A stretch of DNA of 10,971 nt from Caedibacter taeniospiralis (GTDB taxonomy: Bacteria > Pseudomonadota > Gammaproteobacteria > Francisellales > Francisellaceae). Shown piece after piece: positions 561 to 10,971 of the stretch (position 1 is the stretch's first letter; each line of letters opens with the position of its first letter). The notes beneath the pieces are model-generated. The model was not told the origin of the DNA, did not search any database, and saw only the letters and a program-made list of their open reading frames with translations. Location of the stretch: the NCBI RefSeq assembly GCF_002803295.2, contig NZ_PGGB02000018.1, forward strand, positions 18,164-29,134, given 5' to 3'. The translations under genes were made by a program, and so were the position numbers.

Positions 561-1361
561 ATGAAAAATTTAAAGTTGAATAAAGTGATCCTGGCGCTAT
601 TTGCAGTGAGTGCACTTAATGGCATTGCCTTTGCAGAAACAGATGCTGAAAAAATCGTACGCTTAGAGCTTGAATTAAAAGAATACAAAGAGATCTCAAA
701 CAAATATAGAGCTGATTTGGATATATCACATCAAACGTATCAACAATATCAAATAGAAATGGATCAATCATATGCCTTAATAAATGAAAAACTTAAAGAA
801 GTAACTCAGGGATCATACAAAGTTTTTGATGAACAACAAGAGAAATTTGAGAATGAACTTACAGAAGAAGTTACAAAAACCGACAATATTAAAAATAATT
901 TAGATACGATTGGAAATAAAATAAAATCCTTAGAAAAAGAGGAAAAAAAATTAAAAGATGAAAAAAATCAACTGATTAATGATTTCAATCAAAAGATAAA
1001 AAACTTAAATGAAGAATTACTAAAACAAACAGAAGAATCTACACATGAGCTTGATCAAAAAATCAAAGAACTAAATACTGCCAGACAAAACGAAGATGTG
1101 CTAAAAAAACAACTCATAGATATAATTGAGCAACATAAGAAAAATTTAAGTGCGTCTAAAATACGTTTTAAACAGCGAGAAGCAGGTATAGTTGAGCACT
1201 ATAAAACTGTCGGTTCCACATTAGAAGCTCGGCTCAAAGTTATTACTAATACAAAAAGTGTTACAGTAGAACAACTGAAAAAAAATCAGGGTGCCTCGGG
1301 CCTCATGATAGATTTTGTATATCCATACACAAAATCGAATCGGCTATCCTCGGCGGTATAA
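561..1361 (+). CDS. secreted coiled-coil protein; the last ~24 codons and the stop codon lie inside repeat-element copy A
   Basis: ORF track. N-terminal signal peptide MKNLKLNKVILALFAVSALNGIAFA|ETD (K-rich n-region, hydrophobic core, AFA-E cleavage motif). The rest is K/E/L/N-rich and heptad-like. The sequence from codon 244 (GASGLMIDFVYPYTKSNRLSSAV*) is encoded by the GC-rich element starting at 1288. Confidence 0.75.
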   Translation: MKNLKLNKVILALFAVSALNGIAFAETDAEKIVRLELELKEYKEISNKYRADLDISHQTYQQYQIEMDQSYALINEKLKEVTQGSYKVFDEQQEKFENELTEEVTKTDNIKNNLDTIGNKIKSLEKEEKKLKDEKNQLINDFNQKIKNLNEELLKQTEESTHELDQKIKELNTARQNEDVLKKQLIDIIEQHKKNLSASKIRFKQREAGIVEHYKTVGSTLEARLKVITNTKSVTVEQLKKNQGASGLMIDFVYPYTKSNRLSSAV

Positions 1362-1579
1362 ATTTTGCCCGGGCCGCCCGCCTCAACGGTGCTTGTCCTC
1401 ACAAATTCGCTACGCTCATTCCGAACAGACAACACGTTTCCGATTCTACTCTACGCCTTGGGTAAAAGCTTTTTCACAGACTTCGCTCTGGCGCCTTCGG
1501 CACGTCGCTTGCTGATCAACAGCGCAAGGCTACCCGGGTCTACTCGCCCTCGCGTTCCGCTATCCATGGCTCGCAGCGA
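1288..1579 (+). mobile_element. GC-rich non-autonomous repeat element, long form, copy A (292 bp, AGGGTGCCTCGGGCC...GGCTCGCAGCGA)
   Basis: Direct alignment by eye with 7493-7782 (reverse complement) and 6391-6503 (short form). Composition is much more GC-rich than the flanks. Subterminal hairpin GATTTTGTATATCCATACACAAAATC at 1311-1336. No transposase gene inside. Confidence 0.8.
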
Positions 1580-1754
1580 TTGAGGATGTGGTAAGACTAA
1601 CCGAACGCTTGAAAATTAACCCTTGATACAAGTTTTAGAAAATTTTGAACCTTAGATGGTCTGTTAATCTAAGCGTGTAAATTTTACATAGGTTATAATG
1701 TAATCAAATTTATACTTAAGCAAACTATTAAAAACTACACATGGACATCGACTG

Positions 1755-2063
1755 ATGGATGATCTGAATACAAATCTCATTTGCGGTATCACTGATAAGA
1801 ATTACAAGATAACTCTACATACTAACTTAAGTAATCATCGTTTAAATGCTGAGAAAAAAATGGAGTCCTTTGATGACGAGAATTATAAAAAGCTTATTGA
1901 AATCGGTAAAAAAGCTGTATATGAAATCTCAGAGATCGAAGCACTGCCTTCGTTTTTGAACATGTATTACAAAGGTAAAGCGACTCTACTTTTCGAGATA
2001 GATATTAGTAAGTCTTCTACATTCACACATCCAGATAACCACGCTCGAGTAGTTCCGAGGTAA
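1755..2063 (+). CDS. hypothetical protein (102 aa)
   Basis: ORF track only. No recognisable motif and no clear ribosome-binding site seen. It is the only sizeable ORF in this interval. Confidence 0.4.
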   Translation: MDDLNTNLICGITDKNYKITLHTNLSNHRLNAEKKMESFDDENYKKLIEIGKKAVYEISEIEALPSFLNMYYKGKATLLFEIDISKSSTFTHPDNHARVVPR

Positions 2064-2157
2064 ACACTGGGTACACTAGCCACTTACGCTTTAATTTCGC
2101 GGGTAAATCGTTTCCATTGAGACTATTGAAGATAGTTCTTGATTTAGATCAAGTATT

Positions 2158-2343
2158 TTATGCCGATATAGCAATCTTGTAAGCCAAACATCCTAAAGTA
2201 ATCAAAAGGATGAAAGACACTGCTATAATGCACTTTTTCATATCTATCTCTAACGCCATCATCCGTTTTAAGTATCGTTTAAACGAATGGCAGATCGGAT
2301 TTAATTTGTTCATTTTCTTTATCATAGTCACCTCTTCTATCAA
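2158..2343 (-). CDS. small membrane protein with a C-terminal hydrophobic helix (CIIAVSFILLITLGCLAYKIAISA)
   Basis: ORF track. GAGGTGA lies just upstream of the internal ATG at 2325, so the real start may be MIKKMNKL (55 aa). It begins 13 nt downstream of the 78-aa ORF's stop codon (2357-2359), consistent with co-transcription. Confidence 0.45.
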   Translation of the reverse strand: MIEEVTMIKKMNKLNPICHSFKRYLKRMMALEIDMKKCIIAVSFILLITLGCLAYKIAISA

Positions 2344-2356
2344 TGATTAAACTCGC

Positions 2357-2593
2357 TCAAAAGGAGATTTCATCATCCTGAAAATTATTAACCGCTGCTG
2401 CTATTTCTTCAGCTGTTGGGAGTTTTTTGGCTTCAATATGAGAAGGTTTGCTCCCTTTCATCTGAGCATATTGATTGACTTTCTCTTGCCCATCTATGGG
2501 TTTATCAGATGGTCTTGCGTAGTGTATTAATATATTCAAAATATCATATATTTTATCATACAAATAAATATTTTTTAGAGTAGTTTTGAGCAT
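2357..2593 (-). CDS. hypothetical protein (78 aa)
   Basis: ORF track. Codirectional with and closely spaced to the 61-aa ORF. No recognisable family. Confidence 0.45.
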   Translation of the reverse strand: MLKTTLKNIYLYDKIYDILNILIHYARPSDKPIDGQEKVNQYAQMKGSKPSHIEAKKLPTAEEIAAAVNNFQDDEISF

Positions 2594-2731
2594 TTTTAAA
2601 ATAGACGAGGCTATAGCTGTTTTTGAAGAAAAAAGTCATCAACCTCAAATAACACTGACCTATATCAAAATCTGTCAAAAACGCTCACACTACATGTCGC
2701 TGTTCTTTGACAGCATGAACACAACCAATCA

Positions 2732-3631
2732 CTAGTGCTGTGTCTGTTCCACTTCTTTTTTCAGTTTAAGCACAGTGTCCTGATCAAGACCTGTTCCTTT
2801 AACCACCTGTTCAGCAGATAACCCCATCAGTAAGAAATTACGTGCGGTTGTTTGTATTCCTTTTTGTATTCCTTTTTGCTCCCATTGTTCTGCTACCGTC
2901 ATAACATCACCTCTTAAATCTGGTTTGCTGTATATTAGTTTATCATGAAAATCCTTGGTTTCCATGTCCGAATATTGAGACATATACCGAATCAGTACTT
3001 GTCGTGCAATATGGTCATACGCTTCAATCTGATTAATCGCAATATCAAGCTTGCCATCGATGTTCTTTTCTCTGATGGCTTTTAAAATTAATTCGTATCC
3101 TGCAATAAAACCGTGTTCTAAAATTTCCTCGTCACTGTAACGATTAAGGTCAATGAATTGTGTCGTGAAGGCGTATTTTTTAGCTAACTCTGTATTGGCA
3201 AAATAATCATGGATATTAAGACTGTGACTAAATGGCTTTTGATTGGCATAGTAGATAATCGATACCACTAACGGCAAACCTTTTACTGTCTTGTGCCTTT
3301 TAATATAATCCAACAAGTAGCTGGTTTGATAATGTCTTGTGCGGATTAATATAGTGCCATCATCTCCAGTTTGCGATTCAATATGGACGAATACGGCACC
3401 GTTTTTACCATCCTTGAATTTAAAAAGAAAAGTTAAATCGGACTGTTCTTTTTGCTTTTGATTGTCCTTTTGCTGTTGTCTAACATGCTCAACATTCGCG
3501 GACTCAAGCTTGACAGTTTGCCAGTCAACTAACTCGACAAGTTCTTTAGGCAAGTAGGTCATCAAAAAAGAGACGGCAAAATCTCTATTAGCGATTAAAT
3601 CTTTAAAAACTGAATCATGTACATTTTTCAT
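2732..3631 (-). CDS. Rpn family recombination-promoting nuclease / putative transposase (YhgA-like, PD-(D/E)XK)
   Basis: N-terminal HDSVFKDLIANRDFAVSFLMTYLP matches the family-typical HDxxFKxx...FLxxxLP opening. There is a core VHIESQT motif (hhhEhQS). The C-terminal EQWEQKGIQKGIQTTARNFLLMGLSAEQVVKGTGLDQDTVLKLKK tail is typical of Rpn proteins. Recognition is by memory of the family, not by search. Confidence 0.85.
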   Translation of the reverse strand: MKNVHDSVFKDLIANRDFAVSFLMTYLPKELVELVDWQTVKLESANVEHVRQQQKDNQKQKEQSDLTFLFKFKDGKNGAVFVHIESQTGDDGTILIRTRHYQTSYLLDYIKRHKTVKGLPLVVSIIYYANQKPFSHSLNIHDYFANTELAKKYAFTTQFIDLNRYSDEEILEHGFIAGYELILKAIREKNIDGKLDIAINQIEAYDHIARQVLIRYMSQYSDMETKDFHDKLIYSKPDLRGDVMTVAEQWEQKGIQKGIQTTARNFLLMGLSAEQVVKGTGLDQDTVLKLKKEVEQTQH

Positions 3632-3774
3632 TAATGAAATTAGTGTTTTTTTCTTCGACTAAGGAGGATGAGATAACAGTAACACAAATTTGATTTTTAG
3701 CAATTCTGTCATGGTTAACCAGAAAAAGTTCTCAAAAAAAGCATTTTTAAGTGTGTGTTTATGTGTTGCTATTT

Positions 3775-3848
3775 GGCTTTTATTTGATTTAATTATTAAA
3801 TAAATATTTATTATAATTGAATTTTATATGGACAAATAATTACAAATT
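3775..3848. promoter_or_regulatory. nearly pure A/T tract next to the tandem array; candidate DNA-unwinding element
   Basis: The sequence gcttttatttgatttaattattaaataaatatttattataattgaattttatatggacaaataattacaaatt has very few G/C and directly abuts the repeat array. No DnaA box was recognised. Confidence 0.3.
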
Positions 3849-4824
3849 GAGCCATGAGAAATGAGCCATGAGAATGAGCCATGAGCCATTAGCGGATTAG
3901 CTATTAAACCCTTAAGCCATAAGGATTTGAGCCATTACCCATTGAGCATTACCCATTGAGCATTACCCATTGAGCCATTACCCATTACCCATTAGCGGAT
4001 TAGCTATTAAACCCTTAAGCCATAAGGATTTGAGCCATTACCCATTGAGCATTACCCATTGAGCCATTACCCATTACCCATTAGCGGATTAGCTATTAAA
4101 CCCTTAAGCCATAAGGATTTGAGCCATTACCCATTGAGCATTACCCATTGAGCATTACCCATTACCCATTAGCGGATTAGCTATTAAACCCTTAAGCCAT
4201 AAGGATTTGAGCCATTACCCATTGAGCATTACCCATTGAGCCATTACCCATTGAGCCATTACCCATTACCCATTAGCGGATTAGCTATTAAACCCTTAAG
4301 CCATAAGGATTTGAGCCATTACCCATTGAGCCATTACCCATTGAGCATTACCCATTGAGCATTACCCATTGAGCCATTACCCATTGAGCATTACCCATTG
4401 AGCCATTACCCATTACCCATTAGCGGATTAGCTATTAAACCCTTAAGCCATAAGGATTTGAGCCATTACCCATTGAGCATTACCCATTGAGCCATTACCC
4501 ATTGAGCATTACCCATTGAGCATTACCCATTGAGCATTACCCATTGAGCCATTACCCATTGAGCCATTACCCATTGAGCATTACCCATTGAGCCATTACC
4601 CATTGAGCATTACCCATTGAGCATTACCCATTGAGCATTACCCATTGAGCCATTACCCATTACCCATTAGCGGATTAGCTATTAAACCCTTAAGCCATAA
4701 GGATTTGAGCCATTACCCATTGAGCATTACCCATTGAGCATTACCCATTGAGCCATTACCCATTACCCATTAGCGGATTAGCTATTAAACCCTTAAGCCA
4801 TAAGGATTTGAGCCATTACCCATT
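3849..4824. repeat. two-tier non-coding tandem array: 8 x 39-bp anchor units plus 40 x 14/15-bp short repeats (candidate iteron or centromere array)
   Basis: The anchor TAGCGGATTAGCTATTAAACCCTTAAGCCATAAGGATTT starts at 3890, 3993, 4082, 4170, 4274, 4421, 4668 and 4771. Runs of GAGC(C)ATTACCCATT follow the anchors in counts of 4, 3, 3, 4, 7, 14, 4 and 1. Every run except the last is closed by ACCCAT. A degenerate GAGCCAT lead occupies 3849-3889. No ORF is present on either strand. Confidence 0.95.
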
Positions 4825-4835
4825 GAACGAATAAA

Positions 4836-6272
4836 TTATTGAATTTCGTAATACGCGTGTCTACCTTTTCCAAACAATTTAATTTTTGTTTTTGACTTAA
4901 GTCTTTGCAGCCAAATTTTAACCATTTCTCTTGATTTGTCAGGAAATAACTCCATAGCCTCTCTAGTCGTTATTTTACCGTGCTTTTGAATATGTTTAAC
5001 AATCGCATTTTCTGCCAAATTTTCATCGTTTTTTAGTGGTTGATTTGGTTGAGTTTTTTCCTCTAAATCAGGTGTATTTTCCACTTTAATTTCATCATCT
5101 TTTTGAGCTATAATTGCTTCTGCAAATTTCTCTATTGATTGAATAGTAGCGATTTTGCCGTTTAGAAGCTCATCAAGAGACTTTTTTGTTATACTCGTAG
5201 GGTTGTATAGGATGATATCTTTTAATTCAAAGGCGAGCTTCCTAGACGCCTTTAAATCGGTGTTTAGATGATACTGTAGCGTTAATCCATTTTTTCTCCA
5301 CCATTTATTGATTATTTCAAAGTTTTCTTCTGACTGCTTCACTTGTGCTTGTTTTTCTTCATTTAATACCTCTGTATCGTTTGTATTTAAAGGCTTAAAG
5401 CCATTTTCAAGAAGTTTGCATAAATAGCCTGCAAGATTATGAATTTTACTTTTTTTGTTCTCGTTGTAAATTGTCTCAAACCCTTGTTCTATCTTGTTTT
5501 TACCATGTTTTTTAATTAATCCCATAGCGTTTTCTGATGAAAATCCCATATCCATCAATTCAGAAAAACAAAAAAAATCATCATCAAAATCAGTCACGTT
5601 TTCTGCGTAATGAGATTCGTCTGTTTGCAAAATTTCTTTGCGCGCGGTGATGATTGATCTCTTGTTTTCTTCTGTATTCTTATGTAGGGAGCTGTCTACG
5701 CCTTGCAGTGTATGGGTTTGAGAGGTGTTGACAATACACGGTTTGTCCATTTTTTTCCCCGTTTTGTCCATTTTTTTCCCCGTTTTGTCCATTTTTTTCC
5801 CCGTTTTGTCCATTTTTTTCCCCGTTTTGTCCATTTTTTTCCCCGTTTTGTCCATTTTTTTCCCCGTTTTGTCCAAAAAGCCCTGGTTTGTACAATTTTG
5901 GGTTATTTTTAGTTCTGTCTTGTTTTTTTTCTGAATGTTTCTTTTAATAGCTTCGTCAACAACCCATATTTTTCTCTGCAAAATAGAATTGTTGTTGAGA
6001 TCTTTTTTCCGATGAAGATAGCCAAAAGAGGCTAGTTTATCGATATGTCTCTTAATTGATTTTTTACACATATTAAAAAATTTCGCAAAAAAATCGTCAC
6101 TGGCGTAACAAACTCCTTCGTCATTACTCGATAGCATTTTGATTTTAGACAATAGACCAACCTGTATCAAAGACACACCTTCTAACAAAAAATATGACTT
6201 CGGAATTTTTACCATATCCTTTTCTTCATCGTTTAAAACTTGAGTTTGTTTCATGTGATAAATTTGATTCAT
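4836..6272 (-). CDS. HTH-domain replication-initiator-like protein (478 aa) with an internal DKTGKKM x6 repeat
   Basis: The ORF-track start at 6320 is a TTG. The ATG at 6272 is preceded by AAGGAG (plus-strand ctcctt 6281-6286) with 8-nt spacing. The N-terminal segment LLSKIKMLSSNDEGVCYASDDFFAKFFNMCKKSIKRHIDKLASFGYL resembles HTH_36 / phage-plasmid replication-organiser winged helices. A second HTH-like segment lies at the C-terminus (ITTREAMELFPDKSREMVKIWLQRL). The gene abuts the tandem array. The function is inferred. Confidence 0.55.
   Translation of the reverse strand: MNQIYHMKQTQVLNDEEKDMVKIPKSYFLLEGVSLIQVGLLSKIKMLSSNDEGVCYASDDFFAKFFNMCKKSIKRHIDKLASFGYLHRKKDLNNNSILQRKIWVVDEAIKRNIQKKNKTELKITQNCTNQGFLDKTGKKMDKTGKKMDKTGKKMDKTGKKMDKTGKKMDKTGKKMDKPCIVNTSQTHTLQGVDSSLHKNTEENKRSIITARKEILQTDESHYAENVTDFDDDFFCFSELMDMGFSSENAMGLIKKHGKNKIEQGFETIYNENKKSKIHNLAGYLCKLLENGFKPLNTNDTEVLNEEKQAQVKQSEENFEIINKWWRKNGLTLQYHLNTDLKASRKLAFELKDIILYNPTSITKKSLDELLNGKIATIQSIEKFAEAIIAQKDDEIKVENTPDLEEKTQPNQPLKNDENLAENAIVKHIQKHGKITTREAMELFPDKSREMVKIWLQRLKSKTKIKLFGKGRHAYYEIQ
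5739..5874 (-). repeat. 21-bp tandem repeat inside the rep-like CDS (6 perfect copies plus 1 degenerate)
   Basis: Plus-strand CCCCGTTTTGTCCATTTTTTT, with cores at 5757, 5778, 5799, 5820, 5841 and 5862. A degenerate CGGTTTGTCC lies at 5739. It encodes DKTGKKM x6. Confidence 0.95.
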
Positions 6273-6359
6273 TTTTGGGACTCCTTTTTCATGGATTGAA
6301 CAGACCACAGAAGTGAACAAAAAAGCTCTTTCACATCCTGCGATATGATAGTTATTTGA

Positions 6360-6390
6360 GATTTTTGATTTTTGATTTTTGATTTTTGAT
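6360..6390. repeat. 7-bp microsatellite GATTTTT x4.4 upstream of the rep-like gene
   Basis: Direct reading gives gattttt gattttt gattttt gattttt gat. It lies 88-118 nt upstream of the ATG at 6272 and directly abuts element copy B. Confidence 0.9.
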
Positions 6391-6503
6391 AGGGTGCCTC
6401 GGGCCTCATGATAGATTTTGTATATCCATACACAAAATCGAATCGGCTATCCTCGGCGGTATAAATTTTGCCCTCGCGTTCCGCTCTCCATGGCTCGCAG
6501 CGA
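6391..6503 (+). mobile_element. short form (113 bp) of the GC-rich repeat element, copy B
   Basis: It has the same left 82 nt and right 31 nt as the long copies. It lacks the central 179 bp, and the junction falls in a shared GCCC. Confidence 0.8.
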
Positions 6504-6516
6504 GCGATATCCCTAT

Positions 6517-6693
6517 TTAGGCATGATTATTTTCATCGGTGTGCTCAATATCTTTTTCAATAATTTGAACTTCCTTTTCAACGAATTTTGCACCTTCTTC
6601 GGCGAGTTTAATCTCAACCAGTGGACCTATCGTACATCCTCCTAGAATGATTGATAAAGATAGCACTGTCAAAACTTTTGAATATTTTTTCAC
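6517..6693 (-). CDS. small lipoprotein (58 aa: MKKYSKVLTVLSLSIILGGCTIGPLVEIKLAEEGAKFVEKEVQIIEKDIEHTDENNHA)
   Basis: Hand translation; not in the supplied ORF track. GTG start at 6693. Canonical lipoprotein signal peptide (KK n-region, hydrophobic core, lipobox L-G-G-C). TAA stop at 6519-6517. It lies antisense to the element-seeded plus-strand ORF 6418..6645. Confidence 0.55.
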   Translation of the reverse strand: MKKYSKVLTVLSLSIILGGCTIGPLVEIKLAEEGAKFVEKEVQIIEKDIEHTDENNHA

Positions 6694-6754
6694 TTTAATT
6701 TTCTTAAAAAGAAATTACATATTATATATATAAAATAAATATATTTTAATTGCA

Positions 6755-7306
6755 TTAACTTTCTAGTTCATCTTTGTTTTTTGTATCCTTAAAAAAAATT
6801 TTTGGTCTCCCTCTTGGTCGCTTTGGTTTATCTTCTATCGAAGATTTTTGTACTATTTTTTTTGGACGACCCCTTGGCTTCTTATCTAAATTATCAACGT
6901 AATCCAAGAGATTATCTGGATTAGGAATATGTGCTTCATCAGAAATCAAGGCTTTAAATTCATTTGCAAATTTAAAAAGCACTACGCGTTTCTCTCTCGG
7001 CTTTATTTTTTCCATAGTACGTGGGTTATGAGCATTTTTTCTAAAACTTACTCGTGTCTCAAAGCGCCCAAGCCCTTCAAGTAAAATAATCCGATTATTA
7101 AGCAACTGCTCACGTAAAAGATTCATTAACTCATAAAAGAAATGATTACAATCTTCTCTACTAAATTTCGTCTTGAGTGATAAATGTTTAATCAACTCAT
7201 TTCGACTCATAGATCGATTATCTTTCTTACATGGTCTTCCCCTACCCCTTTTAAGCACTTCTTGTTTGTCATTTTCTTGATTTAGTTTTTTTTCTGCGTT
7301 TATCAT
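6755..7306 (-). CDS. HU/IHF-fold DNA-binding protein with N- and C-terminal AT-hook extensions
   Basis: The core MSRNELIKHLS...LEGLGRFETRVSFRKNAHNPRTMEKIKPREKRVVLFKFANEFKALI follows the HU/IHF pattern (MNKxELI start, GxGxF, R..RNPxT.E.I.I, V.FK). AT-hook-like RGRGRPCKK sits before the core, and PRGRPKK and PRGRPK after it. The internal Met33 is an alternative start. Confidence 0.7.
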   Translation of the reverse strand: MINAEKKLNQENDKQEVLKRGRGRPCKKDNRSMSRNELIKHLSLKTKFSREDCNHFFYELMNLLREQLLNNRIILLEGLGRFETRVSFRKNAHNPRTMEKIKPREKRVVLFKFANEFKALISDEAHIPNPDNLLDYVDNLDKKPRGRPKKIVQKSSIEDKPKRPRGRPKIFFKDTKNKDELES

Positions 7307-7380
7307 TTTTTTTCATCTAACTACTGAATGATTCATCGAGCCTTATGTTGGTTATCCTCTGTCGAATAGAGCAGTATCAA

Positions 7381-8021
7381 TCACTTCCAACTCGCGATTT
7401 CAGCAATTCTCTTGTCTGAATTCAAACGATTTTTTATGGCTTCTGCTCTTTTCAACGTGTTTTCTATGTAAACATCATCAGAATTTATACACTCGCTGCG
7501 AGCCATGGAGAGCGGAACGCGAGGGCGAGTAGACCCGGGTAGCCTTGCGCTGTTGATCAGCAAGCGACGTGCCGAAGGCGCCAGAGCGAAGTCTGTGAAA
7601 CAGCTTTTACCCAAGGCGTAGAGTAGAATCGGAGGAGTGTTGTCCGTTCGGAATGAGCGTAGCGAATTTGTGAGGACATGCCGAGGAGGCGGACGGCCCG
7701 GGCAAAATTTATACCGCCGAGGATAGCCGATTCGATTTTGTGTATGGATATACAAAATCTATCATGAGGCCCGAGGCACCCTATTGAGTTTATTCTCAAA
7801 GGACACTCTGTTTGATGCACTTCTTGATAACACTCAACCATTTCCAGGGTCAGCGATCCTCTTGAGTGTTTCTCTTTTAAATATTCAATATCTGACCACC
7901 GTGCTTTACGGATGTCATCTCTGTAAAAATTCATGAAACTTCTTTTTGTTTCAAACACCCCGTAACGTTTATTGATTGCTCTAATAAAAAAATCGTCAAA
8001 AGTTATCACCATCTTATTCAC
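7381..8021 (-). pseudogene. small hypothetical gene interrupted by element copy C; the N-terminal part is fused to element-encoded residues in the 154-aa track ORF
   Basis: Native codons run from 8021 (GTG; or more likely the ATG at 8012, preceded by AGGTGA) to 7783. The element occupies 7782-7493. The downstream tail CINSDDVYIENTLKRAEAIKNRLNSDKRIAEIASWK* (7491-7381) is in frame with the upstream part once the 290 bp are removed. Confidence 0.6.
7493..7782 (-). mobile_element. GC-rich non-autonomous repeat element, long form, copy C (290 bp, inverted relative to A)
   Basis: Its reverse complement aligns end to end with 1288-1579. The first ~89 nt are identical. About a dozen substitutions and a 2-nt indel are clustered in the central segment. 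Confidence 0.8.
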
Positions 8022-8097
8022 CTAAAAATATTTTTTATGATTCAAAAACCATCTCGCCATCTTCTCTCACCAACGGAATCGTCATCTTCTTGTCTTT

Positions 8098-8445
8098 TTA
8101 TACCGCTCGAAGGTAATATGAATATTCATAACCGTCTTTGGTTAATTTCTTCTCCCACGAGCTCAAATGCTCTGGCATGAACAGCGTTTCTTTATTTTTA
8201 ACACTTTCTACAGGATACGTATACGGCTTCTTCGTGTAAAAAATTCCCGTGTACCGATAGCCAATAGGTAAACTATCTTTTTTCTTTTCAAAACAGACTA
8301 TCGCTTCGTTAAAATACGAAATCACCTTCTTAAATTTTTCTTCACCTGAATAATCAATCAACACTTTTTCTTTCTGCATAATAAGCTCAATAATACGCTT
8401 TATGTTTTGGATGTCTGTTTTTAGCTTTTGACGTTCACTACTCAT
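8098..8445 (-). CDS. hypothetical protein (115 aa), translationally coupled to the upstream gene
   Basis: The ATG at 8445 overlaps the upstream TAG (8440-8438) as ATGAGTAG. AAGGAG lies 10 nt upstream. No recognisable family. Confidence 0.6.
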   Translation of the reverse strand: MSSERQKLKTDIQNIKRIIELIMQKEKVLIDYSGEEKFKKVISYFNEAIVCFEKKKDSLPIGYRYTGIFYTKKPYTYPVESVKNKETLFMPEHLSSWEKKLTKDGYEYSYYLRAV

Positions 8446-10126
8446 TTTTTCTTATCTCCTTTTCTTTTTCACGTTGTTTTTGTTTTAAAGCTTCAATGGA
8501 TTTTTGAGCTTCGATGTGGCTTGTTGCCTGTTGTTCTTGACAGCTATAACCATCAACCAAAGCCCAATGCCGTTTTTTAAATGTTCCGATAAAGACATGC
8601 TTAGGATTATTAATCGCTTTTTCATCCCACCTTTTACTTATATCTTCCCATTGATAAGTCATTTGATGTTCAAAATGCCTTAAGAAAATTTGCAGTTGAA
8701 GTGGGTTCATTTCTATGTTATTTTCTTCAGCGTTAATTTTGATTTTATTGATGTCCGATGAATAGAAGGGTGCTTTCCCCATGCTTTTCAATAGGTCGTT
8801 GATTTTGGTAAGGTCGATGGTTTCGTAAGTAAGGTCAAGATTAACATCGCTTAGATTGACATGACTTAAAGTCAGAGAGTCTGTTTTGTTTAATTCATCT
8901 CTAGTGGTTTCGTTTGTTTTAGTTGCTTCTGAGTTATTTAAAGTAATTTTTCTTAAATCATGATTTTCTTTAACGAGCAGTTCGTATTGCTCTTTTATAA
9001 ATTCCAATTCTTCTGTTAATTTTTCAACGTCATTAGATTGACTATATTTAGAACTGTCTGTTTTTTCATCTTGTCCCATATTACATAACATACTATGCTC
9101 TTCTATTTTATCTATATTATAAATATGGGAGTCGCTTTCATTTTTTTGTGGTGTGTTTTTTTCAAAGTCACCTTGTGTACTTTGTAGGCTTTTTACGTAC
9201 TCAAAAACGTCTGGTCTGATCTGATATTTTACCCATCCATTTCGACCTGTTTTACGCTCGTAAACTGAAATGTAGTTCTTCTTTTTGAGGCGGTAAATTG
9301 CTTTTTTTACAATGTCTTTATTAGATTTTATCTGCTTAATTATATTGTTAGTGTTGATATGACATGTGATTAGTAAACATAAATTTTCTAAGCTAGAAAT
9401 CATAATTCTTATAACTATAAATTGACACCCGTTCAGTTGGATTTTATTTCCTGTTTCTTGAGACATGTCCTCCGTTTTGTCCCCTATTTCTTGAGACATG
9501 TCCTCCGTTTTGTCCCCTGTTTCTTGAGACATGTCCCCCGTTTTGTCCCCTATTTCTTGAGACATGTCCTCCGTTTTGTCCCCTGTTTCTTGAGACATGT
9601 CCTCCGTTTTGTCCCCTGTTTCTTGAGACATGTCCCCCGTTTTGTCCCCTGTTTCTTGAGACATGTCCTCCGTTTTGTCCCCTGTTTCTTGAGACATGTC
9701 CCCTGTTTTGTCCCCTGTTTCTTGAGACATGTCCCCTGTTTTGTCCCCTGTTTCTTGAGACATGTCCCCCGTTTTGTCCCCTGTTTCTTGAGACATGTCC
9801 CCTGTTTTGTCCCCTGTTTCTTGAGACATGTCCCCTGTTTCTTGAGACATGTCCCCCGTTTTGTCCCCTGTTTCTTGAGACATGTCCCCCGTTTTGTCCC
9901 CTATTTCTTGAGACATGTCCTCCGTTTTGTCCCCTGTTTCTTGAGACATGTCCCCCGTTTTGTCCCCTGTTTCTTGAGACATGTCCCCCGTTTTGTCCCC
10001 TGTTTCTTGAGACATGTCCTCCGTTTTACCGTGGTTATTTATAAATGGGTTATCCCATGGTCGATATTTTTTAGGAATATATTCTTTTTTAGACACTAAA
10101 ATAGTGATGTTTTCAATTTTAGGCAT
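8438..10126 (-). CDS. repeat-containing winged-helix protein in the ParB position (562 aa); candidate centromere-binding or Rep-like protein
   Basis: The ATG at 10126 lies 1 nt after the parA stop codon (TAAAATG). Residues 37-230 are 18 tandem DMSQETGDKTG/E units. An HTH-like segment follows (IKQIKSNKDIVKKAIYRLKKKNYISVYERKTGRNGWVKYQI). No ParB/Spo0J motifs were recognised. Confidence 0.7.
   Translation of the reverse strand: MPKIENITILVSKKEYIPKKYRPWDNPFINNHGKTEDMSQETGDKTGDMSQETGDKTGDMSQETGDKTEDMSQEIGDKTGDMSQETGDKTGDMSQETGDMSQETGDKTGDMSQETGDKTGDMSQETGDKTGDMSQETGDKTGDMSQETGDKTEDMSQETGDKTGDMSQETGDKTEDMSQETGDKTEDMSQEIGDKTGDMSQETGDKTEDMSQEIGDKTEDMSQETGNKIQLNGCQFIVIRIMISSLENLCLLITCHINTNNIIKQIKSNKDIVKKAIYRLKKKNYISVYERKTGRNGWVKYQIRPDVFEYVKSLQSTQGDFEKNTPQKNESDSHIYNIDKIEEHSMLCNMGQDEKTDSSKYSQSNDVEKLTEELEFIKEQYELLVKENHDLRKITLNNSEATKTNETTRDELNKTDSLTLSHVNLSDVNLDLTYETIDLTKINDLLKSMGKAPFYSSDINKIKINAEENNIEMNPLQLQIFLRHFEHQMTYQWEDISKRWDEKAINNPKHVFIGTFKKRHWALVDGYSCQEQQATSHIEAQKSIEALKQKQREKEKEIRKNE
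9437..10027 (-). repeat. 33-bp tandem repeat inside the CDS (16 full units, one 21-bp unit, one degenerate terminal unit)
   Basis: GAGACATG recurs at 9460, 9493, 9526 and onward with a 33-nt period, with a single 21-nt step (9823 to 9844). The plus-strand unit is CCCCTGTTTCTTGAGACATGTCC[C/T]CCGTTTTGT. Confidence 0.95.
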
Positions 10127-10127
10127 T

Positions 10128-10971
10128 TTAAATTCCCAATATTTCGGATGTTAATAAACTAAAATCTTCTTTTTCTGGAGTTTTTTTAAAACTATCAAAG
10201 ACTGATATAGACGCTGCTATACAGTTCTCTATAGATTGAAGCGACCTTATATAGCTTCTTAATAAAATTGAGTTGCACTGTTTATTTTTTAATACATATT
10301 TCATTACTTCATGCGATAGATTTGTTCTTGAATCAAATTTATTAAACAATATCTTCAAAACTATATCTTTATCATATTTTTCACATAAATTTAAAATTTC
10401 ATGATGAGTTAATTCAAGACCAGCTAAAGCATAATCAGTTGGAGTGATAGGCATTATTATTTCATCTGATGCAAGTGTAGCAGCAGATACTGCTGACCCT
10501 ATAGATGGTGGACAGTCAATAACAATAATATCATATTTGTTTTTTAATTCTGAAAAAGGTTTATTAAAAACCTTATCTAATGGATGCTTACCAAGCATTA
10601 AAGAGTTATCAAGTAAGGCATTATCTACCCTGCTTGGTATAAAATCTAAACCATCAAATATATTTATAAGTAAATCACTTATCTCTAATTTGTCATTTAT
10701 ATAATCAATAAGAACAGGTTTTTTTCTGGCATCAACCCCCAATGTTCTTGTAAGATTTGCTTGTTGGTCTAATTCAATAAGAGCCACTTTAGCACCTAAG
10801 ATGGCAGCTCTAATCGCAAAATTTAATGATATAACTGTTTTACCAACCCCTCCTTTAACTAATTGGAATGAATATATCTTATTGGGGAATTTATAATTAA
10901 AAAGTTTTTTTGCAGTGTTATGAGAAAAATATACTCTTCTACCAAAATTTTTAGTTTGAAGCCCGCTGTTC
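10128..10971 (-). CDS. parA: ParA/Soj-family partition ATPase, 5' end beyond the window edge
   Basis: The track ORF starts at a GTG (10787), but the frame stays open to 10971 by hand translation: ...NSGLQTKNFGRRVYFSHNTAKKLFNYKFPNKIYSFQLVKGGVGKTVISLNFAIRAAILGAKVALIELD. Deviant Walker A KGGVGKT is encoded at about 10842-10862. Walker B-like IIVIDCPP is present. Confidence 0.9.
   Translation of the reverse strand, partial: NSGLQTKNFGRRVYFSHNTAKKLFNYKFPNKIYSFQLVKGGVGKTVISLNFAIRAAILGAKVALIELDQQANLTRTLGVDARKKPVLIDYINDKLEISDLLINIFDGLDFIPSRVDNALLDNSLMLGKHPLDKVFNKPFSELKNKYDIIVIDCPPSIGSAVSAATLASDEIIMPITPTDYALAGLELTHHEILNLCEKYDKDIVLKILFNKFDSRTNLSHEVMKYVLKNKQCNSILLRSYIRSLQSIENCIAASISVFDSFKKTPEKEDFSLLTSEILGI

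Follow-up and report, generated by a model that had tools for sequence, protein, structure and literature searches.

A GC-rich sequence of about 290 nucleotides recurs three times in a stretch of 10,971 nucleotides of AT-rich DNA from Caedibacter taeniospiralis (contig NZ_PGGB02000018.1, positions 18,164 to 29,134; hereafter the window), which raises the questions of whether it is a discrete mobile element and, if so, how it moves. The window is 99.8% identical to the R-body plasmid pKAP298 of C. taeniospiralis and is itself part of an R-body ("killer") plasmid of this Paramecium endosymbiont. The plasmid is probably the sister plasmid pKAP51, which was reported to be 41.65 kb long and to differ from pKAP298 mainly in the absence of Tn5403 (PMC7297999). 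The three GC-rich copies, pointed out by an initial annotation made from the letters alone, were recovered by repeat search and BLAST. They comprise two full copies, one of 292 nucleotides at 1287-1578 on the plus strand (copy 1) and one of 290 nucleotides at 7494-7783 on the minus strand (copy 3), and one internally deleted copy of 113 nucleotides at 6390-6502 on the plus strand (the short copy). Comparison with pKAP298 left the copies in place and moved each of their boundaries by one base: one additional 5' base belongs to the element, and the 3' "A" that had been counted in is flanking sequence, as it is variable in other copies and present in an empty site. Copy 1 reads CAGGGTGCC...GCTCGCAGCG, and the element termini are CWGGGTGCC... 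at the left and ...CTCGCAGCG at the right. In agreement with the initial annotation, the element is GC-rich (G+C 0.548, compared with about 0.25-0.37, or roughly 33%, in the surrounding DNA), and the differences between the long copies, which share 96-97% identity, are concentrated in the center (alignment columns about 91-165). Copy 3 represents a 96% variant lineage.

pKAP298 provides an empty site for copy 1. Positions 1-1286 of the window align with pKAP298 25914-27199 and positions 1579-10971 with pKAP298 27200-36592; because pKAP298 aligns continuously across 27199|27200 without the 292 nucleotides in between, 1287-1578 is an insertion. The empty site reads aaaaaaaat|attgagg. The terminal inserted bases of copy 1 differ from the adjoining target bases and no boundary bases are shared, so that the boundaries of copy 1 are unique and nothing was duplicated or lost. 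Copy 1 is also the only element-sized difference that we found in the window between pKAP298 and the window's plasmid. It breaks a host gene at 561-1626 on the plus strand, which is an intact coding sequence (CDS) of 257 amino acids in pKAP298; the broken open reading frame (ORF) stops within the element at 1361, and removal of copy 1 in silico gives back the pKAP298 CDS. Copy 3 splits a minus-strand gene (7381-8021) in sense orientation. Removing exactly the 290 nucleotides at 7494-7783 results in an ORF of 116 amino acids, as opposed to 81-84 amino acids when 289 or 291 nucleotides are removed. According to BLAST, pKAP298 has four full copies in addition to the short copy, and two of them (21747-22038 and 38854-39145) are 100% identical to copy 1. 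Removing the 292 nucleotides at 21747-22038 fuses two annotated CDSs into one ORF of 605 amino acids. The element thus accounts for several split or "hypothetical" genes on the plasmid that carries the killer trait. The short copy retains the first 83 and the last 30 nucleotides of the element, and its deletion, as read from the sequence, joins two GCCC microhomologies. It occupies the identical site in pKAP298 (32012-32124) and is probably immobile.

The element is not confined to the plasmid. The copy search proposed in the initial annotation found more copies, all of them in pKAP298, in C. taeniospiralis-type contigs and in one related genome. A left-end pattern search identified 19 metagenome contigs with copies of 95-100% identity. 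Nearly all of these contigs end inside the element, as expected for a multi-copy repeat, and they carry chromosomal housekeeping genes. A pseudo-translation search identified 34 further loci, all in a single Francisellaceae metagenome-assembled genome (MAG; JBMSHD01). Every one of the 34 MAG copies is complete, 288 nucleotides long and 89% identical to the element in the window, and their differing from one another at only 4 positions indicates a recent burst in this genome. The only stretch of host DNA that the MAG and Caedibacter samples have in common is 67% identical; therefore, at 89% identity, the element is either horizontally mobile or constrained. We found no match to the element in phage and viral-contig collections, none in the plasmid collection other than pKAP298 itself, and none to the exact left-end pattern in reference genomes. 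The terminal sequence was not found in the literature, and neither was any description of the repeat, though the original pKAP298 paper could mention it. The best reading of these results is that of a new family, spanning C. taeniospiralis (plasmid and chromosome-like contigs) and a related Francisellaceae MAG. The copies also differ at their first base (1287, 6390 and 7783 in the window): Caedibacter copies with 98-100% identity elsewhere begin with C in 8 cases, T in 12 and A in 5, never with G, and 34 of 34 MAG copies begin with C.

Removal of the element restores long ORFs at 15 of the 34 MAG sites, in 9 of which it lies antisense and in 6 sense to the ORF. Three intragenic plasmid copies are in sense orientation, and intragenic copies elsewhere lie antisense in an N-terminally truncated glgC-like ORF (translation read by eye) and in a yhcG-like ORF (Pfam). 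Because intragenic copies are found in both directions, splicing or translation through the element is not its route to tolerance. Target duplication, shown to be absent by the empty site of copy 1, is also absent at lengths 2 to 9 and offsets 0 to 4 in 33 further sites. Two findings were named in advance as telling against a mobile element, namely a match to a known insertion sequence (IS) or miniature inverted-repeat transposable element (MITE) with inverted repeats and duplications, and derivation from a conserved gene fragment; we found neither. A coding fragment was rejected: the element peptide has no homologous protein, and no gene is recorded with the internal ORF. It is essentially certain that this is a discrete, non-autonomous, duplication-free and recently mobile DNA element, as the initial annotation had proposed in part and as the exact filled and empty pair supports. 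In the MAG relative, where at least 34 near-identical copies interrupt many genes, the recently active element is a concrete agent of gene loss in these host-associated bacteria.

The two ends of the element are different from each other. One carries a near-perfect palindrome 24 nucleotides from its tip, and the other an imperfect hairpin 2 nucleotides from its tip. The palindrome, GATTTTGT...ACAAAATC, lies at 1311-1336 of the window (element positions 25-50, helix 243-268 on the minus strand), which is where the initial annotation had placed it. Its arms are 12 bp long, with one mismatch in Caedibacter and none in the MAG family. The imperfect subterminal hairpin lies at 1540-1576 on the minus strand and contains a GCG-GAA-CGC mini-hairpin; its helix (3-11/31-39) shows one compensatory change, from C:G to A:T, between the Caedibacter and MAG lineages. 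A further hairpin noticed earlier, CTTGCTG-ATCAA-CAGCGCAAG, is present as well. RNAalifold identified 4 compensatory pairs on the minus strand, three of them in a central hairpin. These pairs are weak evidence for structure, since they come from effectively two lineages and the structure was derived from the same sequences. The folding energy of the element is not in excess of that of shuffled sequences on either strand (z = +0.48 and +0.53), and no Rfam model matches at E<=1, those of IS605-associated RNAs included. These results do not support a role as a structured RNA, which had been suggested. We set aside an asymmetry of G:T wobbles in the hairpins as evidence for the active strand, as it follows from base composition and the fold z-scores are equal on both strands. 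Convincing terminal inverted repeats, already noted as lacking in the initial annotation, are indeed absent: the left end compared with the reverse-complemented right end gives a best local score of 16, which is reached by 123 of 500 shuffles (14.2 +/- 2.9).

We then consider the sites into which the element has inserted, using the 40 sites with both flanks (33 in the MAG and 7 in Caedibacter). A single flank base is invariant, namely G at position +4 of the right flank (40/40). In the same flank, C is found at +1 in only 1 of 40 sites, and A or T at +5 in 35 of 40. The left flanks (25 from Caedibacter and 34 from the MAG) are unconserved and only A/T-rich at -4 to -7, and the base preceding the element on the strand of copy 1 can be any of the four; an IS608-type target on the left flank was rejected for the lack of conservation. 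In the window, the tetranucleotide abutting the right end of copy 1 is ATTG (1579-1582, plus strand), which is found once in the empty pKAP298 site, so that the +4 G of copy 1 is a base of the target. The equivalent of ATTG is AGCG at 6503-6506 for the short copy and CACT on the plus strand at 7490-7493 for copy 3. The left terminus of the element, CWGG, has the same G at its fourth position. The rule is most easily seen on the complementary strand, which reads CNNN|CGCTGCGAG... at one junction and ...GGCACCCWG|flank at the other: both cuts fall 3' of C-N-N-N. On this strand, C is present at -4 in 40 of 40 sites, and positions -3 to -1 are free except that G is avoided at -1. Two copies share seven bases past the right end, which agree in large part with T-C-A-T-W, the target preferred on the active strand. 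The palindrome end is the "ter-like" end, because it does not abut the conserved flank base, and the end with the imperfect hairpin is the "ori-like" one.

The insertions in the MAG are also biased with regard to replication. With the element setting the orientation of each MAG locus, 28 of 34 have a negative GC skew in their flanks (binomial p=2e-4), and the skew stays negative inside genes whichever way these point (-0.049 and -0.089). From a position-weight model of the target, a fraction of 0.47 of the insertions would be expected in the observed orientation; the availability of target motifs does not account for the strand bias. In these 28 copies the 5'-CGCTGCG...CCCWG-3' strand coincides with the G-rich strand, which under the usual rule serves as template for the lagging strand. 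It is thus well supported that the element moves as one strand at the replication fork in the MAG.

We consider it fairly probable that the family is non-autonomous and moved by single-strand transposition of the HUH type, closest to IS91/Helitron and IS200/IS605, and we infer that the moving enzyme is an HUH nuclease. The transferred strand would be complementary to the one read in copy 1 and have the sequence 5'-CGCTGCGAG...GGCACCCWG-3'. A trans-acting HUH-type single-strand nuclease or transposase would cut twice, each time 3' of C-N-N-N: first in the flank adjoining the 5' end of the element and a second time at the 3' terminus (CCWG) of the element itself. The enzyme would then release or copy a single-stranded circle, which could be pasted 3' of another CNNN in the single-stranded DNA of a lagging-strand template, with no duplication as the outcome. 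The presence of CNNN at both cuts matches the logic of HUH enzymes, which cleave 3' of a short motif in the flank and at the far end (PMC5027513, PMC3597680, PMC13181058).

To which of the known single-strand transposons the element is closest was judged from their published features. IS91 inserts without duplication, with a tetranucleotide beside oriIS and a related one at the terIS cut, and it has subterminal palindromes and a single-stranded DNA circle of the bottom strand as substrate (PMC13181058). Similarly, our element and IS91/ISCR/Helitron have no inverted repeats, no target duplication and two functionally different ends; a non-duplicated tetranucleotide is present at one end only (here NNNG), with a related one at the other cut (here CWGG); a subterminal palindrome lies ahead of the "ter" cut, as matched to the published description of oriIS and terIS and not to measured IS91 distances; and fewer than 90 bp per end are enough for a mini-element. 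In IS91, too, the target tetranucleotide sits 5' of the element on the strand that is transferred (PMC13181058). By this layout, with the tetranucleotide at the ori-like end and the palindrome before the ter-like cut, the element is closest to the IS91/ISCR/Helitron rolling-circle elements. It has, however, no sequence similarity to IS91, and its target sequence differs from the IS91-type CTTG/GTTC/CTCG: IS91 uses CAAG/GAAC (CTTG/GTTC on the other strand), where position 2 is invariant (T) and position 1 nearly so (C or G), whereas the target here is CNNN. There is no sign of one-ended transposition or flank transduction, as the endpoint is one and the same base in 34 of 34 MAG copies and in every full Caedibacter copy. 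To our knowledge, non-autonomous derivatives of 290 bp are not a described feature of bacterial IS91.

IS608 and ISDra2, of the IS200/IS605 family, have their active strand on the lagging-strand template and insert 3' of a tetranucleotide (PMC5027513, PMC3597680). The element shares with this family, including PATEs and Nezha-type MITEs, strand-specific insertion 3' of a short motif with no duplication, subterminal hairpins that replace inverted repeats, an active strand which (for the MAG) lies on the template of the lagging strand, precise excision and insertion, and the existence of hairpin-bearing non-autonomous derivatives. Unlike in this family, no complementarity between a guide and the cleavage sites is evident, no conserved tetranucleotide is present on the side of the strong hairpin, and one invariant base takes the place of a tetra- or pentanucleotide target. 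The kinship to IS200/IS605 proposed in the initial annotation therefore holds in its direction, by virtue of the filled and empty pair, the one-sided invariant base and the strand bias, and is not supported as strict membership on account of the linkers at the two ends and the missing tetranucleotide. The element fits neither IS91/Helitron nor IS200/IS605 fully; it is a hairpin-bearing non-autonomous transposon that demands unusually little of its target and has a non-canonical end geometry. REP/REPIN sequences (RAYT, TnpA-REP) are likewise short, G+C-rich, hairpin-bearing, multi-copy and non-autonomous, and one trans-acting HUH gene is presumed for them. However, they are palindromes of 20-40 nucleotides or doublets of about 100 nucleotides, intergenic and with a GTAG guide, whereas the element has 290 nucleotides, is asymmetric and is often intragenic. 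Rickettsia palindromic elements and Coxiella QMITEs are also repeats spread in the genomes of intracellular bacteria, within ORFs. The analogy with the former, drawn earlier, is not supported, since those are in-frame and translated, whereas lengths of 292, 290 and 113 nucleotides are not multiples of three, the truncated host ORFs stop inside the element, and there are an exact empty site and a target rule. The 288-nucleotide MAG form has one open frame, which is compatible with chance.

Several observations weigh against an HUH enzyme. The target contains a single invariant base, fewer than known HUH transposons require. The linkers on the inferred active strand are 2 nucleotides (5') and 24 nucleotides (3'), the reverse of the rule in IS200/IS605, where the left linker (15-19 nucleotides) is longer than the right one (8-10 nucleotides) (PMC3597680). 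No bias between strands is seen in the Caedibacter-type contigs (10 versus 8), it is an assumption for the MAG that the G-rich strand is the leading strand, and the hypervariable first base of the Caedibacter copies is not explained by the model. Furthermore, neither a Y1 nor a Y2 HUH transposase was found in the approximately 300 kb sampled for enzymes, to which the MAG contributed 171 kb, metagenome contigs 80 kb and the plasmid 49 kb. In this sample, phmmer (with an IS608 TnpA query), motif scans and Pfam identified no Y1 TnpA or TnpB, the six-frame ORFs contain no HPHxH or HTWG motif, and no candidate enzyme is common to the Caedibacter and MAG parts; the hypothetical proteins of pKAP298 have no HUH motif either. 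No cognate transposase was identified in the window either, as had been stated before, and its sole transposase-like gene (Rpn/Transposase_31, 2732-3631) shows no link to the element. There is a smaller chance, which we would still take seriously, that the element defines a third kind of bacterial single-strand transposon, apart from IS200/IS605 and IS91, whose nuclease would require one base only, 4 nucleotides from the cut; it could be an HUH nuclease of a new type or one of the Rpn/PD-(D/E)XK "putative transposases" found alongside the element in Caedibacter.

The Rpn/YhgA-like PD-(D/E)XK "putative transposases", which are multi-copy in this lineage, deserve consideration as an uncharacterised nuclease moving the element, given that no known transposase family fits every feature of it. 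In addition to the Transposase_31 gene in the window, two more and one PDDEXK_2 protein are found in Caedibacter-type contigs that carry the element. However, there is no Rpn homolog in the 171-kb MAG sample despite the very recent burst there, and Rpn genes never adjoin the element ends; moreover, we know of no transposon substrate of the Rpn family, which further reduces a probability that we regard as low. We regard as equally improbable a site-specific tyrosine or serine recombinase acting via a double-stranded circle on loosely defined targets, as in Tn916, Tn554 and IS607-type elements. It would agree with the absence of target duplications and inverted repeats and with a tyrosine recombinase gene on pKAP298 (10168-11016); a donor-derived "coupling" base might account for the variable end base, and the joined ends of the MAG copies would make an 8-bp palindrome, CAGCG|CTG. 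This palindrome is nevertheless missing in all Caedibacter variants (CAGCG|CAG, |TAG and |AAG), the two junctions have no dinucleotide in common, as serine recombinases need, and the plasmid recombinase is without a homolog in the 171 kb of the MAG. In addition, double-strand recombination would not be expected to give a 28:6 bias between replication strands.

An RNA intermediate, for example one copied by the reverse transcriptase of a plasmid group II intron, is very improbable. A degenerate intron of this kind lies directly 3' of one pKAP298 copy (intron at 39146-41058; frame-shifted reverse transcriptase ORF at 39601-40626; Rfam Intron_gpII domain V/VI at 40945-41058; 5' part apparently missing), the insertion is exact, and group II retrotransposition likewise favors the template of the lagging strand, which speaks for this route. 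The element itself has no ribozyme or Rfam signal, its 288-292 nucleotides are far below the size of a group II intron, and the target has one invariant base, not a pairing site of 10-13 nucleotides; nor is there a reverse transcriptase homolog in the MAG sample, evidence of an internal promoter or a 3' tail. A functional RNA gene or self-splicing intron that makes intragenic insertion tolerable is hardly credible at all. The sense orientation of the three intragenic plasmid copies, the last base G and the compensatory pairs found by RNAalifold could be explained in this way, but the Rfam and folding results, the antisense copies in glgC, the yhcG-like gene and 9 MAG sites, a 5' flank base other than U and lengths that are not multiples of three all speak against it. 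We retain single-strand transposition of the HUH type as the preferred reading. With its compact size (<300 bp), its sharp boundaries, the filled and empty pair, a target rule of one base and insertion biased between the replication strands, the element is a well-bounded substrate that makes both the search for the enzyme and the minimum target information of a single-strand transposase directly testable.

Several other candidates were rejected. A classical DDE-derived MITE does not agree with the absence of terminal inverted repeats and of a duplication of fixed length. An IS110/IS1111 element, guided by a bridge RNA, is not compatible with flanks that are unrelated save for one base and with junctions at which no dinucleotide is repeated, and the latter also applies to the dinucleotide of a serine recombinase. 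A group I intron or IStron, which would insert after T and end in G, was discarded for the missing Rfam match, the variable 5' flank base and the antisense copies. A diversity-generating retroelement or retron using the plasmid reverse transcriptase was discarded as well, given that the enzyme is that of a degenerate group II intron and that the copies do not differ specifically at adenines.

Several arrangements of the element and its surroundings were also observed. Directly 5' of the short copy, GATTTTT is repeated 4.4 times (6360-6390), and the last unit is the left flank of that copy. In pKAP298, 47 nucleotides at 48084-48130 are 81% identical to the left end of the element, decayed palindrome included, and lie in an A/T-rich region upstream of a CDS (47257-48015); this stretch may be an old element remnant. 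In two MAG loci (L038 1-396 and L047 1-455), copies lie 62 and 116 nucleotides apart in the same orientation, and a further copy is found at a contig edge (L049 1-49), an arrangement that suggests local clustering of insertions. In metagenome contig L010 (1-400), an element copy is cut after 25 nucleotides by the end of another IS (GGAATTACCGGCAAGTAGCC...). At its other end (2894-3011) this contig is bounded by that IS end in inverted orientation, and a second remnant consisting of AGGGTGCCT plus the IS end lies 83 nucleotides upstream. Contig L004 (1-557) has a graveyard of IS fragments to the right of a full copy, opening with the decayed N-terminus of an IS66-like transposase (motif ...NSSKPPSSDG), to which an rve-type C-terminus is fused.

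The window contains other repeats. A 63-nucleotide inverted repeat (417-479 and 2714-2776, 86% complementary) brackets the region that received copy 1; the Rpn/YhgA-like Transposase_31 gene has its 3' end within the 2714-2776 arm, and the 417-479 arm resembles an orphan 3' fragment of a second such gene. An array of about 1 kb at 3848-4826 consists of 14/15-nucleotide units (TTGAGCCATTACCCA), with higher-order periods of 29 and 89-103 nucleotides. It adjoins an HTH_36 replication-like gene (4836-6320), is arranged differently from the array in pKAP298 and looks like an iteron or origin region. Within the ORF at 4836-6320, a perfect 21-bp repeat of 6.4 copies (5742-5875) encodes (KTGKKMD)n. Finally, a 33-bp repeat of about 17 copies at 9450-10027, in an ORF of 562 amino acids (8438-10126), encodes (GDKTGDMSQET)n, and this region is only about 91% identical to pKAP298.

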